A stretch of 22,414 nucleotides of DNA, taken from NCBI GenBank assembly GCA_021432655.1, contig MU271354.1, positions 62,001 through 84,414 of the forward strand, read 5' to 3'. Positions 8,339 to 22,414 of the stretch are shown piece after piece (within the stretch, counting starts at the first letter, position 1; every line of letters starts with the position of its first letter). This DNA comes from Atractiella rhizophila. Taxonomy: Eukaryota. The notes below the pieces were generated by a model, which did not search any database, was not told where the DNA came from, and saw nothing but the letters and a program-made list of their open reading frames with translations. The position numbers and the translations under genes were made by a program.

Positions 8339-9009
8339 TCACTTAAGAGCTGCCTGGAGCGCTTCATACACCTCGACCTCGACGGCGGCTTCCGCCTTTT
8401 CTTCCTCTGTCGCATTGCCGCTGACAACCCGTTGGGCTTCGGCGAGAGCTGAACGGACGGCCTTTGTCCCCAATTCCACCAGTTAGAGCTGTACATGATA
8501 TAGCAAACGCAACAAACCTCAGGTGAGAAATCCGTTAGAGGAAAAGCTTCAATGGCGTTGATGGTAAGGGTGTTGTTGGGATGAACGTTGGCAAAGCCAC
8601 CACTCACTAGAGAAAGAGGGTAAGCAATGTGTGTCCTCGTAGGAGCAAGAGCCATACCGAACCACTTCTTGGAATCTGCTGCTGAGCCCTCAATTACTTC
8701 GACAATTCCCGGTTTGAGCGGTTCAATGACGGGAACGTGGTTGGCAAGTATACCCATATCTCCACTGCCGGCTGCCACATTGACTTGTACCACATCCTGG
8801 GAGCTGAAAATTGTCTGTCAAGACGATACCTGTCATTTCTGTTGCGCATGCATCGGCAGAGAGCGTACCTCGTGAGGGAGGACCAAGGACAGCTTGAGCT
8901 TCCCAGACTCTTCAGCGTAAAACCTTTTTGCCCCAAGTGCAACAGGGTTGCGGAGGCTGAGACCTTTAGAGGTCTTTGGGACAGCCCGTAAAGCAAATCG
9001 AGAGAGCAT
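8339..9009 (-). CDS. ATP16: Mitochondrial ATP synthase F1 delta subunit, intact copy (169 aa)
   Basis: Exons 9009-8869, 8814-8658, 8606-8518 and 8461-8339. Basic presequence MLSRFALRAVPK..., then KLKLSLVLPHE, GDMGILANHVP, FVSGGFANVHPNNTLTINAIEA and a C-terminal helical hairpin ending EVYEALQAALK. Confidence 0.95.
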
Positions 9010-9131
9010 CCTTTTTGATAGTTGGTGGTTGATTTTGTCGAGCTTTACTTATGACTCACAACCTCAAACGACGAACAGTCCAAACAGTTTCTGTTCTGTA
9101 GGCCTTACCCGCGCTGTAGCAGACTATCGAA
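9010..9131. promoter_or_regulatory. 122-bp divergent intergenic region (ATP16/TOA1) containing TGACTCA at 9052-9058; duplicated at 11257-11377
   Basis: Head-to-head ATGs at 9009 and 9132. TGACTCA is the AP-1/Gcn4-CpcA core; its function here is inferred only. Confidence 0.55.
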
Positions 9132-9948
9132 ATGTCCAACAAAGTAGTGGTGAGCACTTTATATACCTCCCAGAGCAGGTTTGAGAGGAAGCACAGCCGT
9201 CCGTTTACAGGTCGATCATTGACCAGGTTATGGCCAACTGTCGCAACGATTTCGACGAAATGGGCATTGAAGATGCGGTACGAGGAGAACTACAGCGCGT
9301 GCGTTATTCTTCTGATACTTCGCTTCGCAATTGCTTACAAGGTATCAAGTCGTGGGAGAGCAAAGTGGCAAATTCCCGAACGGCTGACTATTCCTCCGAA
9401 GAACGCTTCCAGCAATGGACTTCTCCTTCCTCCTCAGCGTTGGAAACCACCTCAGGTTTTGGTGTTGGAAATGGTGGTCCTCTGAAAGACGAGTACGCTC
9501 TTCTGCTTCAGTTTACGCGGAGCTAAGGTAGCGAAGATCTGAGGACAGCAAGGATGGGATATTGCCTCAACCTGCCAGCTCCCAAGGGAATGGCAAATTG
9601 AATGGAACGCCACTGAGGGATCCAAAGAAGAACCTGGACGATGAGGAGATCGGCAGTGACCTGGATGAGCCTGATGATGATGAGATTGAAGACAACGACG
9701 GGTATGTGGGAGACATGGCGATTGCTCTTTATGACAAGGTGAGTCTTGTCTTAGATGGTGCGTGAAACTTTATTGACCAATCTCTAGGTACAAAGAGTGA
9801 AGAACAAATGGAAGATCACGTTGAAGGATGGAGTCGTCAATGTGAAGGGGAAAGATTATATATTTTCAAAATGCAGCGGGTTTGTCTTTCTTCCAATTCG
9901 ATGCTCTCAGCTGAAATTCTTACGTGATCTAGCGAGTTTGAATGGTAG
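9132..9948 (+). CDS. TOA1: Transcription initiation factor IIA large (alpha/beta) subunit, copy 1 (190 aa)
   Basis: Exons 9132-9149, 9197-9298, 9350-9492, 9537-9738, 9788-9879 and 9933-9948 give MSNKVVPSVYRSIIDQVMANCRNDFDEMGIE...SWESKV, IGSDLDE, and LYDKVQRVKNKWKITLKDGVVNVKGKDYIFSKCSGEFEW. Confidence 0.95.
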
Positions 9949-10641
9949 CATTCCCGGTGTTTGGGATCGTTTCTTGTGTGCCATATTTTCAGTATCTCTG
10001 ACTGTTTGTCGCTATCATCTCATCTGTACTCTTACGCTCACAAGGTGTGTCAGTCATCAGGCATCATTTCGTCCACAATGACCTCTCCTTGTCCACTTTT
10101 ACATCTATTGTTTTGGTTGATTTGGAGGAAAATTAAACGCATTAGTTGGTGACGGCACCCAAGGCTGTGCATTGGAGGTAACGGTCACGCGTCTTGTTCA
10201 AGTGTATTGTTTTATTGCTTCCCAAGGGCGAGAAAATGTCGCGTGAAGATACGCTCGATGTCACTTGCACGGAGTACAGCATAGTGTCCGAATGCGTTTC
10301 GAAATTACCCCTTCACACTCCTTGTCATCAATGGACAGGGACATTTTTGTTAGGATTGCTTGCTGGCGTCCAATAACTTCTGTCTTAATGATCAGGGTGG
10401 GCTCAAAGGAGAGGTTGTTTTGCTCTGCCTTGCCCAGGTGCACCTCGTTAACCACAACTTTGAAGCCAATGTCGCGATGGTGCTGGTGTTCCACATGTTA
10501 CATTCCAGTCGATCAGATTATAGATACGTGGAAAGCATGGTCTGTCCATTGCACATTTATTATTATTACAGTAAGAGACGCACAGCCATCAAAAAAAAGA
10601 AAACCGGGAAGGTACTCGACAGTCCCCCAACTTGACATCTA

Positions 10642-11256
10642 TCATTTCATTTTGACGTATTTGCGTCCTTCTTTGGGGTGTTCCAACTGGGTTTCACATC
10701 AGCAGTAGCTAAGATACAATTCCACCAGTTAGAGCTGTACATGATATAGCAAACGCAACAAACCTCAGGTGAGAAATCCGTTAGAGGAAAAGCTTCAATG
10801 GCGTTGATGGTGAGGGTGTTGTTGGGATGAACGTTGGCGAAGCCACCACTCACTAAAGAAAGAGGGTAAGCAACGTGTATCCTCGTAGGAGCAAGAGCCA
10901 ATACCGAACCACTTCTTGGAATCTGCTGCTGAGCCTTCAATTACTTCGACAATTCCCGGTTTGAGCGGTTCAATGACGGGAACGTGGTTGGCAAGTATAC
11001 CCATATCTCCACTGCCGGCTGCCACGTTGACTTGTACCACATCCTGGGAGCTGAAAATTGTCTGTCAAGACGATACATGTCATTTCTGTTGCGCATGCAT
11101 AGGCAGAGAGCATACCTCGTGAGGGAGGACCAAGGACAGCTTGAGCTTCCCAGACTCTTCAGCGTAAAACCTTTTTGCCCCAAGTGAAACAGGGTTGCGG
11201 AGGCTGAGACCTTTAGAAGTCTTTGGGACAGCCCGTAAAGCAAATCGAGAGAGCAT
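10642..11256 (-). CDS. Chimeric truncated ATP16 copy: exons 1-3 (129 codons) joined to the CDC50 3' end; may be a pseudogene
   Basis: Exons 11256-11116, 11061-10905 and 10852-10764 are open with GT/AG sites retained. The native last exon is absent. The stop depends on splicing: 10694-10696, 10642-10644 or 10647-10649. Confidence 0.6.
10647..10686 (-). other. Duplicated terminal exon of CDC50 ([12 protein letters not shown]) with its acceptor and downstream 3' region
   Basis: Identical to 12899-12938; preceded on the minus strand by gctgat...cccag. Confidence 0.9.
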
Positions 11257-12967
11257 CCTTTTTGATAGTTGGTGGTTGATTTTGTCGAGCTTCACTTATG
11301 ACTCACAACCTCAAACGACGAACAGTCCAGACAGTTTCTGTTCTGTAGGCCTTACCCCGCTGTAGCAGACTATCGAAATGTCCAACAAAGTAGTGGTGAG
11401 CACTTTATATACCTCCCAGAGCAGGTTTGAGAGGAAGCACAGCCGTCCGTTTACAGGTCGATCATTGACCAGGTTATGGCCAACTGTCGCAACGATTTCG
11501 ACGAAATGGGCATTGAAGATGCGGTACGAGGAGAACTACAGCGCGTGCGTTATTCTTCTGATACTTGGTTTCGCAATTGCTTACAAGGTATCAAGTCGTG
11601 GGAGAGCAAAGTGGCAAATTCCCGAACGGCTGACTATTCTTCCGAAGAACGCTTCCAGCAATGGACTTCTCCTTCCTCCTCAGCGTTGGAAACCACTTCA
11701 GGTTTTGGTGTTGGAAATGGTGGTCCTCTGAAAGACGAGTACGCTCTTCTTCTTCAGTTTACGCGGAGCTAAGGTAGCGAAGATCTGAGGACAGCAAGGA
11801 TGGGATATTGCCTCAACCTGCCAGCTCCCAAGGGAATGGCAAATTGAATGGAACGCCACTGAGGGATCCAAAGAAGAACCTGGACGATGAGGAGATCGGC
11901 AGTGACCTGGATGAGCCTGATGATGATGAGATTGAAGACAACGACGGGTATGTGGGAGACATGGCGATTGCTCTTTATGACAAGGTGAGTCTTGTCTTAG
12001 ATGGTGCGTGAAAACTTTATTGACCAATCTCTAGGTACAAAGAGTGAAGAACAAATGGAAGATCACGTTGAAGGATGGAGTCGTCAATGTGAAGGGGAAA
12101 GATTATATATTTTCAAAATGCAGCGGGTTTGTCTTTCTTCCAATTCGATGCTCTCAGCTGAAATTCTTACGTGATCTAGCGAGTTTGAATGGTAGCCTTC
12201 CCGGTGTTTGGAATCGTTTCTTGTGTGCCATATTTTCAGTATCTCTGACTGTTTGTCGCTATCATCTCATCTGTACTCTTACGCTCACAAGGTGTGTCAG
12301 TCATCAGGCATCAGTTCGTCCACAATGACCTCTCCTTGTCCACTTTTACATCTATTGTTTTGGTTGATTTGGAGGAAAATTAAACGCATTAGTTGGTTAC
12401 GGCACCCAAGGCTGTGCATTGGAGGTAACGGTCACGCGTCTTGTTCAAGTGTATTGTTTTATTGCTTCCCAAGGGCGAGAAAATGTCGCGTGAAGATACG
12501 CTCGATGTCACTTGCACGGAGTACAGCATAGTGTCCGAATGCGTTTCGAAATTACCCCTTCACACTCCTTGTCATCAATGGACAGGGACATTTTTGTTAG
12601 GATTGCTTGCTGGCGTCCAATAACTTCTGTCTTAATGATCAGGGTGGGCTCAAAGGAGAGGTTGTTTTGCTCTGCCTTGCCCAGGTGCACCTCGTTAACC
12701 ACAACTTTGAAGCCAATGTCGCGATGGTGCTGGTGTTCCACATGTTACATTCCAGTCCAGTCGATCAGATTATAGATACGTGGAAAGCATGGTCTGTCCA
12801 TTGCACATTTATTATTATTACAGTAAGAGACGCACAGCCATCAAAAAAAAGAAAACCGGGAAGGTACTCGACAGTCCCCCAACTTGACATCTATCATTTC
12901 ATTTTGACGTATTTGCGTCCTTCTTTGGGGTGTTCCAACTGGGTTTCACATCAGCAGTAGCTAAGAT
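10717..12967. repeat. Tandem segmental duplication, unit 2 (2251 bp)
   Basis: See unit 1; the two units are separated by a single A at 10716. Confidence 0.95.
11378..12195 (+). CDS. TOA1: TFIIA large subunit, copy 2 (protein identical to copy 1)
   Basis: Same six-exon structure. I see only two synonymous coding differences; the rest are intronic. Confidence 0.92.
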
Positions 12968-14410
12968 TAACTACTTTCACACACCTAAGATAGCGCAAGT
13001 CGCCAAGTTTTCTCGGTTTGATGATGTGCCGGAGAGTGAGAGCGAGTCCTAGCAAGAAGCAAACTCCACCAACGACTATGTAGACGATACCAAGGAACGG
13101 GTTTTTGCCTCCTATAAAACTGACAGTGCTGAAAACCAGTTGCTTTGAACCTTTAAACTGCCTGACGGGATAATCTAACCTCAAAGTCAGTTCAGGTTTT
13201 TCAAGTCTGCCAAAAGAGCGCACTCATGGTGATTTGGATCTGGTATCGTCCAGGAGCCATGTCTTCATTTTCATTTTTAAAGTAAAGCTTTCTGAAAGTC
13301 GGCAATCCCGCCGTCCTCATCCAAACCTGAAAATGCTCATCTTGGCTCAAGTCTGGTAAGCTAGTCGCAGAGCTCCCAGGTTCTCCCTCAGTATACCTTC
13401 CATTCGGGTACCTCGATTGCCAAAATGGTGGAGGAACAACTTGGTCGAAAGCATATTTGGTCTTCCCATATTTCTTCTTCTCTCCAGGCCAAGCAATCCC
13501 TTGATCCGTCATGTTGTATGTCTGGTTTTGACCAGTCGAACCAGCAGGATTGAGAAGCACGGGTGGGAGGAAGGTGTCGTTAAAGAACGAATTCGCAATT
13601 AAGCCGCAAGGATAGATAGGAAGGCCATCTTGGCTCGCCAATGGATCGCAAGCGCCTTTGTTCAGCGTTCCTGCCGATCGAGCGCTCCCTTTCAGCTGAT
13701 CTGTGTCCAGGGACTGCACATAGCTGTATAACCTCAGCACCAGAAATTCAAACTATTGTGATTCAGACTCACCGACGATGGTTTTGATAGTAACGTGTTA
13801 GCTTGTAATACATAAAAACGTTTTTTTCCAATTTTTTGGGGACCTCGAACTCTAAAAGGCAGATTGGCTGTTCCCACATGAGCATCACAGGTTGTGGTTC
13901 AGTAAGTGACCCCTCACCCCAGCGCTGCCGTTTGTGAACGAATATGTTGGCTTGGCAATGTTGCCAGTTGAGGCACTCCCTGAGCTCAAGCTATAATCGA
14001 ACTTGTCATCCGGGAGTGGAACGGGAGTTTCCGTCTGGAGGTCGCAGTCGGTGTAGTTAAGGGTAAACTCATTGACCTATCCCCCAAGCTCAGGCTAAAC
14101 CTGAGTTCATCTCGAAGAGCCTACCTTGTTCGAACCGTAGAGGAGGAGCCCACCGATAGGGCCGAAAATAATTCCGATGAGAAAGAAAGCAGGAAGAACG
14201 GTACGAGGAGTCAGGATAGGTTGCCACGCCTTTAGGCGCTGTTGTTTGAAGGCAGTGTCTGTGATTTGCCAGTTCAGGAGTCGCCATTATCTAAAGAAAT
14301 AGAATAAACTCACTTGCTGGCCGTCTCGAAGCCTTCTTCTTCTCTCCTGCATTGGAGATAGAATCGTCTTTCTCTTTCGTCGGGGATGACTTTCGATTGA
14401 ATAATCCCAT
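12899..14410 (-). CDS. CDC50: CDC50/LEM3-family flippase beta subunit (~404 aa)
   Basis: Exons 14410-14314, 14258-14125, 14076-13918, 13867-13773, 13723-13224, 13174-12985 and 12938-12899. Motifs [77 protein letters not shown] and [13 protein letters not shown]. Confidence 0.95.
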
Positions 14411-20500: not shown

Positions 20501-21035
20501 GTCTGTTGGACGATGGGAGTGACCTCTCTTCTTGCGTACAAGATATGGCAATCCACTAAACAGACTATGCACGGGAGCAGGAATAATGAACGATTAGCGC
20601 TTAGCCTATGCTGATATGGTAATGAAAACTGAACGTTGGTTGGGCATTGAGCTTTGAGTGTTGCTGGTTGGACGTTGGACCCCCAAGCTGCAATCCCCCT
20701 AAGATCAAGATCACTCCACTACTTCTGTCAATCATCTCATCAGAGTCAGCATCTGGGTCACGTACGGAACATTATTGCTTGCGATAGCGTATACTCTGTA
20801 AGGAACTAGTCGCAAGTCTCCTCTCCAAATCTGCCTGATATCTATCGCGAGAGAGGGTAAGTCATGCATCTATGCTGTGTTCATTCATGGGTTTTCAGCT
20901 GACATGTCTGTATGTTGCTCATCATCACCGCGTCACCTCAGTCAACTTCGTTCTTAGACAGTAGTCCCCTTGTTAACCATTTGACGGCATCCCCACTACC
21001 TACTGCTTGAAAGCTGCACTTATTGCTTCTTGGCG

Positions 21036-22414
21036 ATGTCTAATCCCCTTTTGGCGCAAATTCAGCAAGGGAAGAAGCTGAAGAAGGCTGTTACCAATGA
21101 TCGATCAGCTCCAGCGATCGACGGTATGCATCTCTTCTGTTCTGACCGCCACCTGGTGTTGATCAAGAGCAGGTAAAAGCAGTTCAGGAGGAGGAGGCAA
21201 TATGGGAGCGGTAGCTAGTGCTCCGCGACCTCCCACTCTAGGGTCTGCGCCTCCAGTTCCGGGAGGTGGTGGTGCACCTCAATTGGGAGGTCTTTTTGCT
21301 GGTGCGCTGCTTCGTAATTACTATTTTGGCCTGCCTAAATTAAATATCAAAAGGGGGTATGCCAACGCTCAAGAAGACCGGAGGACTAGGAAGGGACCCA
21401 AGCACTTCAATATCGTCCGCACCACGTCCTCCAAGCGGGCCGCCGAAACCCCCCAGCTTGGCACCCCCAAAACCTCCTGCCTCAGCTCCTCCACGACCTC
21501 CCCCTGGGCGTCCTCCGGGAGCCCCTCCGCCTCCTCCATCGCCTATCCCCTCCAAGCCTGCAGCTCCTCCTCCTCCACCCAATGTTGGCAGACCAGTCGC
21601 TCCTCCCCCGCCTGTACCAACAAACAGACTTCCAAGCGCTCCACCTCCACCTCCACCTCCAGTTGCACGCCCTCCGGCAGCTGCTCCTCCTCCTCCTCCT
21701 GCTGTAACTTCTGTCCCCCCGAAGCTCCCGCCATCCCGCCCTCCTGTACCACCGCCGGCTCGCACTCCTCCGACAAACACTACACCTAACCCTCCACCAC
21801 GGCCTGCGAACGGACTCCCTCCTCCCCCTCCTCGTCCAGGATCAACCTTAGCGACTAAACCGCCTCCTACTCCATCGAGACCTGGCAGCACCATAGTTCC
21901 TCCCCCTGCGCCACCCAGGCCAGCTGTACCCCCGGCGCCAGCTCTTCCAGGTAGAAAACCGCCTCCTCCGTCACGGCCAATCTCATCTGTATCGCCTGGT
22001 TTACCACCGCGTGCAGTTCCTCCTCCACCACCTTCCTCTGGTCCCGCACCGCCTCCCCGGCGAGTGCCTGCGCCGCCTCCTCCAACCATCGTCCCCGAGG
22101 ATGAAACAGAAGAGCCTTCACCACCTCCACTGCCTCCTGCTCGCGCCCCCATGCCCCCTGTCTCCGCACCGCCGAGAAATGTTCCCCCACCCCCTCCAGC
22201 AGCAGCAGCTACCAATCCTGGAAGCAGAGCACCTCCAACTCTGCCTCCTCCTCGGAAGGCTCCACCACCTGTTGGAGGATCCGTTTTTACTCCTCCTCCG
22301 AGACCTCTAAGTGCAATGCAGTCCAGGCCGATTAAAGACGATGGCGAGAGCAGCAATACCCGCGGCAGTCGACTAAGTGTCGACGGCCCAGCGCTTGGTA
22401 GACAAAGGAGCATT
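21036..22414 (+). CDS. VRP1: Verprolin/WIP-like proline-rich WH2 actin-binding protein; 3' end outside window
   Basis: WH2 motif LLAQIQQGKKLKKAVTNDRSAP; second motif QLGGLFAGGMPTLKKT formed across intron 21302-21353; first intron 21124-21172. A long poly-Pro region stays open at the window end. Confidence 0.88.

Follow-up and report, generated by a model that had tools for sequence, protein, structure and literature searches.

A tandem ATP16-TFIIA-CDC50 segment and its chimeric gene model in Atractiella rhizophila: a probable false heterotype duplication

In the assembled genome of Atractiella rhizophila, a gene model joins exons 1-3 of ATP16, which encodes the mitochondrial F1 delta subunit, to the 3' end of CDC50, and the question raised by this locus is whether such a chimera belongs to the organism or to its assembly. 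The window, meaning the whole stretch of DNA that was analysed, comprises 22,414 nucleotides (GenBank assembly GCA_021432655.1, contig MU271354.1, positions 62,001 to 84,414 of the forward strand), and all coordinates given here are those of the window. Based on a repeat search and pairwise alignments, the window contains a direct, head-to-tail tandem repeat (8471-10715 and 10717-12967) with the single base 10716 between the two copies. The repeat is about 2245 nt long, with an identity of about 98.8%, far above the chance expectation. There are 0 N letters in the window, so the units are joined without an assembly gap, and the gapless junction consists of one non-templated base without microhomology. 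In the global alignment, the two units differ by 23 substitutions (15 transitions and eight transversions) and four indels (three of 1 nt and one of 5 nt, the latter a slippage of GACTG), and the final 565 nt of both are identical except for the 5-nt slippage indel. The units and the genes that they contain or interrupt are as follows.

8339-9009, minus strand: native ATP16 (F1 delta, 169 aa; GenBank KAH8922420.1), exons 8869-9009, 8658-8814, 8518-8606 and 8339-8461
8471-10716, no strand: unit 1 (haplotype 'c1'); its last base, 10716, is A, the junction base, versus T at 12968
9132-9948, plus strand: TFIIA large-subunit (TFIIA-L) gene, unit 1 copy (TOA1-like, 190 aa, six exons), from the reading frame and Pfam
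10717-12968, no strand: unit 2 (haplotype 'c2'); first mismatch to unit 1 at its 96th base (10812)
11257-11377, no strand: divergent region of 121 nt between the ATP16 and TFIIA-L start codons
11378-12195, plus strand: TFIIA-L gene, unit 2 copy, exons 11378-11395, 11443-11544, 11596-11738, 11783-11984, 12035-12126 and 12180-12195
12899-12938, minus strand: last exon of native CDC50; its last intron is 12939-12984 (46 nt), and the other exons lie upstream, above 12985

Both breakpoints fall within co-oriented minus-strand genes, namely, in intron 3 of ATP16 (8462-8517 in the native gene, 56 nt) and in the last intron of CDC50. Both parent genes are nevertheless intact, native ATP16 combining unit 1 with exon 4, and native CDC50 combining the last exon in unit 2 with the exons that precede it. 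In Pfam searches, the native delta subunit carries both PF02823 and PF21334 (the latter at residues 126-166), and PF03381 (CDC50) was recognized in the frame 13204-13752. A whole TFIIA large-subunit gene, absent from the initial annotation of this DNA, lies inside each unit, with PF03153 (TFIIA alpha/beta) found in two plus-strand exons. The two copies encode identical proteins, differ at two synonymous sites, and have five introns each, of 44-53 nt. If the duplication were real, this doubling of TFIIA-L would be its main dosage effect.

The sequencing runs examined, designated X1, X3, X4 and X5, all come from isolates other than the source of the assembly; X1 is the only DNA-type run, was examined as Logan contigs, and contains 0.80 of the sampled words. 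Two ATP16 introns (10853-10904 and 11062-11115) and three TFIIA-L introns were confirmed by spliced contigs in three runs, and the last two TFIIA-L introns by 243 letters of record 8 of X3. In the divergent region, transcript contigs on the ATP16 side reach 11263-11268 and those on the TFIIA-L side begin at 11308-11309, the divergent transcripts thus starting only about 40 nt apart. At the other end of TFIIA-L, record 8 of X3 is a single contig that covers TFIIA-L exons 4-6, the 3' region and the last exon of CDC50, the latter spliced to an upstream CDC50 exon (10000-10688 with 11784-11900); because this contig spans both genes, the 3' ends of the TFIIA-L and CDC50 transcripts, which converge here, either overlap or meet. 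Elsewhere in the window, the stretch 21000-22414 reaches a GC content of 0.59 and has open frames of more than 350 codons on both strands (21340-22413 on the minus strand and 21344-22414 on the plus strand).

The initial annotation described the junction as a minus-strand gene that passes from ATP16 exons 1-3 (in unit 2) into the end of the CDC50 intron, the last CDC50 exon and the 3' region (in unit 1). Recomputation gave the same anatomy, and all of the coordinates proposed for it hold: the ATG at 11256, the donor, the CTAAC branch site, both acceptors, the intron lengths, and the substitutions at 10812 and 10839. What is confirmed in this way is the assembled sequence, as distinct from a junction in the DNA of the organism. 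The parts of the chimeric model are these.

11116-11256, minus strand: exon 1, with the ATG at 11256 and the presequence; one non-synonymous difference to unit 1 (A24S, 11187)
10905-11061, minus strand: exon 2, core of the beta-sandwich
10764-10852, minus strand: exon 3, ending in ...FSPE
10687-10763, minus strand: hybrid intron of 77 nt, made up of 47 nt of ATP16 intron 3, base 10716, and then 29 nt of the last CDC50 intron
10642-10686, minus strand: terminal exon of the 143-aa model, which is the last CDC50 exon in a different frame (stop of the CDC50 frame at 10647-10649)

The three ATP16 exons total 387 nt. The hybrid intron has a GT donor (10763-10762), the ATP16 branch site CTAAC (10732-10728), the CDC50 branch site CTGAT, and an AG acceptor at 10688-10687, together with an alternative acceptor (AG, 10710-10709) that is the first after the ATP16 branch site and would give a 55-nt intron. 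The three products put forward in the initial annotation could all be reproduced: product a (133 aa, acceptor at 10709, ending in ...FSPE-LLLM and a stop), product b (143 aa, acceptor at 10687), and product c (167 aa, intron retained), the last arising because the 77-nt intron is stop-free in frame and its retention reads into the CDC50 frame. When exon 2 served as the query in a protein search, two NCBI proteins of Atractiella rhizophila from one 84,414-nt record matched, the native KAH8922420.1 and KAH8922422.1 (143 aa), which is product b exactly; the chimera is thus already annotated in GenBank. The distance from the branch site to the first AG is about 20 nt in the hybrid intron (AG at 10709) versus 21 nt in the native one, and judging from this spacing product a would be at least as plausible as product b, the choice made in GenBank. 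At the same conserved intron position, directly after ...FSPE, the delta model of Sporobolomyces johnsonii (183 aa) has about 23 extra residues, which look like an unspliced intron.

The chimeric reading frames were said to keep the promoter, ATG, presequence and complete beta-sandwich of ATP16 and to lose its C-terminal hairpin, and both statements stand. PF02823 was found at residues 38-115 of the 143-aa model (63 bits against a cut-off of 27, E-value = 2.7e-17), and PF21334 is absent from that model, occurring in Pfam searches only in the native 169-aa protein. The AlphaFold model of the 143-aa form, built from a 10-sequence alignment, has ten strands over residues 38-122 at a pLDDT of 72-85, with values below 50 in the presequence and the new tail (129-143). 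Its best structural match in Foldseek is the yeast F1 delta chain 3ofn_H (59% identity, E-value = 2.3e-11), and other delta and epsilon chains also match. By residue count only, the first 34 residues of the chimera contain seven K/R versus two D/E. None of the stops of the three products lies upstream of an intron, and the CDC50 3' end region (10527-10688) is covered by X4 and X5 contigs.

Taken as it stands, this arrangement could be a real, young tandem duplication of 2.25 kb, private to the isolate or to one of its nuclei and end-joined with one added base. The allelic split between the copies would then have come from a single meiotic crossover, right of 10151, with a homologue that had diverged, or from an assembler that spread heterozygous alleles over the copies. 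TFIIA-L would be doubled, and the transcribable chimera of ATP16 exons 1-3 with the CDC50 3' end would be a by-product, neutral or mildly harmful, and not under selection. Several features agree with such an event. The gapless junction with its single non-templated base is what end-joining at a real tandem duplication is also expected to leave; the right-hand 565 nt of the units are near-identical despite variation at these positions in other samples, which a young duplication explains at least as well as an assembly error does; and the chimera retains its splice signals, all 121 nt of the divergent promoter region, and a 3' end region that is proven by the X4 and X5 contigs. Moreover, segregating tandem duplications that make chimeric genes are described as common in Drosophila populations (PMC4069613, PMC5460883). 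Weighed together with the evidence presented below, a real duplication nonetheless seems unlikely to us.

The junction is absent from the one other isolate with DNA data. X1 is recognized as a different isolate because it combines 11101-A with 11112-G, 11 nt apart, a combination found in neither unit. All seven of its matching contigs were inspected and none bridges 10716 (0/7); two of them run natively through the breakpoints and are unbroken there, although X1 contigs do break at SNP bubbles. One contig passes from 10271-10715 into the native CDC50 intron, and another from native ATP16 exon 4 into 10717-10811. Over all of X1, X3, X4 and X5, no contig covers 10716, contigs being able to show presence and not absence. 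That the junction is missing from X1 counts against a real duplication and says nothing direct about the source isolate, and this difference of isolate likewise weakens the case for an assembly error.

The contig depths of X1 count only as a hint, since contig depth is no copy number. The two X1 haplotypes at 10782-10930 have depths of 109.9 and 256.4, giving 366, and the depth is 327-333 for contigs wholly within the unit and 372 for the 99% unique flank; these values hint at one locus with two alleles. The two haplotypes stand at about 1:2, not 1:1 (138.6:227.3 at 10189-10300 and 109.9:256.4 at 10782-10930), and may reflect unequal nuclei in a heterokaryon, aneuploidy or a mixed culture.

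Transcripts that cross the junction and carry the copy-2 SNPs had been proposed as a check on the chimera. In the spliced contigs of X3, X4 and X5 (3/3), the unit-2 alleles at 10812 and 10839 occur in an exon 3 that is joined to native exon 4, and the last CDC50 exon is joined to its native upstream exon (3/3). The chimeric joint, from 10764 to 10708 or 10686, was found in none of the four runs (0/4), a weak result in that all four come from other isolates. The copy-2 SNPs therefore ride on native transcripts, and the check turned out against the chimera to the extent that these runs allow.

Broader searches were less telling. In two metagenome scans, one for a 27-nt pattern from the ATP16 intron and one for a 33-nt pattern from exon 3, 0 loci were obtained each time, and as the patterns fit native and junction forms alike these scans have no bearing either way. 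The 97-aa frame across the junction (10650-10940, minus strand), compared with a protein database, gave 24 matches, none of them over the junction, the best coverage being 61% at 56% identity, from other fungi; this search is uninformative, because in short-read contigs a real junction would lie on a fragment not long enough for gene calling. In X3, the depth leaps to 7727 at 10960-11023, where two contigs diverge from the window with loose ends at 10970 and 11004; a second sequence resembling ATP16, either a paralogue or derived from a different organism, matches the conserved GDMGILANHVP stretch in this run.

The differences between the units are allelic. In the coding regions, seven of the eight are synonymous (five of six in ATP16 and both of the two in TFIIA-L). 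When the 21 differing sites in the stretch covered by the contigs were compared with the other samples, the unit-1 allele was seen at 11 sites, the unit-2 allele at 18, and both at eight. Within X1, the haplotypes of 10782-10930 coexist and equal units 1 and 2 at all six sites (6/6, 10812-10900). The substitutions at 10812 and 10839, proposed in the initial annotation as diagnostic of the second copy, are instead population alleles, carried in three other samples by transcripts spliced to native exon 4. Judging from these comparisons, the differences are standing alleles and not the decay that follows a duplication, and such differences are not expected at the birth of a sister-chromatid duplication. 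Repeat-induced point mutation as their source was ruled out, there being no one-sided C-to-T bias and most of the alleles being common to other samples, and so was an old duplication with independent decay, the unit-2 alleles being native-gene alleles of other samples. In other samples these alleles are those of native ATP16, which accounts for the 5:1 excess of synonymous differences across exons 1-3; the excess is no evidence of selection on the chimera.

The positions of the unit edges point to the assembler. The first difference between the units lies at offset 95 (8566/10812) and the last at the final base (10716 A versus 12968 T), so that, given K = 96 and the edge criterion adopted in this analysis, the first variant site follows the start of each unit by K-1 = 95 bases and the last variant site is the final base of the unit. 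With the left breakpoint placed at random, offset 95 would result at seven of 2246 positions (0.3%), which argues against a real duplication; the pattern was noticed after looking, however, and the chance of a match summed over 11 common K values is about 7%, which must be held against the assembly reading. The same edge rule is seen at K = 31 in the Logan contigs of X1, where the branch contigs at 10782-10930 extend from the first variant (10812) minus 30 to the last (10900) plus 30. ALLPATHS-LG was the usual assembler for fungal drafts from JGI at that time. The unipath graph of that assembler is built at K = 96 (PMC3483556). The Atractiella rhizophila genome is described as unpublished (PMC13347111), and literature searches for the species found no paper that links it with this assembler, nor an assembly method or ploidy, which counts against the assembly reading.

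Taken together, these results indicate that the tandem pair is probably a false heterotype duplication, from which a chimeric gene and an additional TFIIA-L gene, both false, have arisen. In the source isolate, a single ATP16-TFIIA-L-CDC50 locus would be present as two haplotypes, and both branches of one graph bubble would have been written in series by the assembler, where it should have chosen between them. Concatenation of K = 96 edges, with K-1 bases dropped per edge end, would yield the order S0 (up to 8470), H1, H2 and R (from 12969), in which the orphan base 10716 would be nothing other than the last heterozygous site, and the 143-aa ATP16::CDC50 model and the second TFIIA-L gene would be annotation products of the assembly error. 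That the source isolate is heterozygous or heterokaryotic, and that its assembler worked at K = 96, is what we infer from the allelic differences and the edge arithmetic. The initial annotation had itself named an assembly artefact as the outcome that would refute its proposal; this is now the likelier reading, drawn from the assembled sequence and from contigs of other isolates. Assembly errors of this kind, in which a false heterotype duplication produces a false chimeric gene, have been described (Ko et al. 2022, PMC9516828). According to that description, false duplicates 'most often' have a gap between them, and only in some cases does unsupported sequence link them; the lack of any gap (0 N) between the present units is a point against counting them in this class.

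The proposal made at the outset was one of gene birth, in which the chimera is real and expressed and owes its maintenance to the action of a hairpin-less mitochondrial delta subunit as a modifier or a dominant-negative form in the rotor. Some of its premises are sound. All three products retain the presequence and the intact beta-sandwich (pLDDT 72-85 over 38-122; 3ofn_H, E-value = 2.3e-11), with no product stop upstream of an intron, and a solved bacterial F1 whose epsilon C-terminal domain has been deleted (8yh8_H, rank 10 in Foldseek) indicates that a sandwich-only subunit can sit in the complex. If the junction were real, the chimera might be transcribed from the intact divergent promoter, spliced at 10709 or 10687, and imported; it might then compete with native delta for gamma and the c-ring while being unable to hold epsilon, as a dominant-negative or tuning rotor subunit born with a doubled TFIIA-L dose. 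This course of events appears improbable to us, and its retention by selection is more doubtful still, to the point of being very improbable. Every argument against a real duplication applies here too, and the synonymous excess that might have spoken for selection reflects, as noted above, native-gene alleles in other samples. No relative with such a form was found in the protein searches, the sole sandwich-only annotated protein of the species being KAH8922422.1 itself. In F1, the hairpin holds subunit epsilon (Atp15), so that a hairpin-less delta made from the native promoter would more likely do harm than be of use. Gene birth is accordingly not borne out by the seven X1 contigs, the four runs, the population alleles at the supposed copy-2 SNPs, or the unit edges, which fit a K = 96 bubble.

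If the false heterotype duplication is the right reading, the GenBank entries for Atractiella rhizophila include a false gene model, KAH8922422.1 (143 aa), along with a spurious second copy of the TFIIA large-subunit gene, and the same assembly may contain more such pairs, which would inflate the numbers of gained genes and of 'new' chimeras. The edge rule (first difference at base K, last at the final base) would then serve as a cheap, sequence-only flag for such artefacts in other draft assemblies. If, on the other hand, the junction is real, the locus would be a clear example from nature of an F1 delta subunit with a promoter but no hairpin.

Among known systems, the mitochondrial F1 delta (yeast Atp16) and the bacterial epsilon share with the chimera the N-terminal beta-sandwich (PF02823; 3ofn_H), and the intron after ...FSPE lies at the domain border; unlike them, the chimera lacks the C-terminal helical hairpin (PF21334) and has in its place 4 to 38 unrelated residues of low predicted order. 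The mitochondrial hairpin also contacts the small epsilon subunit. In the Bacillus PS3 F1 whose epsilon is without its C-terminal domain (PDB 8yh8, chain H), a sandwich-only rotor subunit is likewise still in the complex, although that deletion is bacterial and man-made. The chimeras of Drosophila yakuba and D. simulans (PMC4069613, PMC5460883), which stem from segregating tandem duplications with each breakpoint inside one of two adjacent genes, have the same geometry and also join the promoter-bearing 5' part of the gene in the downstream unit to the 3' part of the other gene, with the parent genes intact and the gene between them duplicated whole; those chimeras, as described there, were validated by reads and some by RNA, whereas no read or transcript in the present runs supports the junction. 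The false heterotype duplications of Ko et al. (PMC9516828) differ from the present pair in the N gap, which does not occur here, and the K-1 edge arithmetic comes from this analysis rather than from that paper. They resemble it in that two alleles stand side by side in a haploid assembly, with copy variants that equal haplotype variants, and in that the annotation gains an extra gene, here TFIIA-L, and a chimeric one, here ATP16::CDC50.
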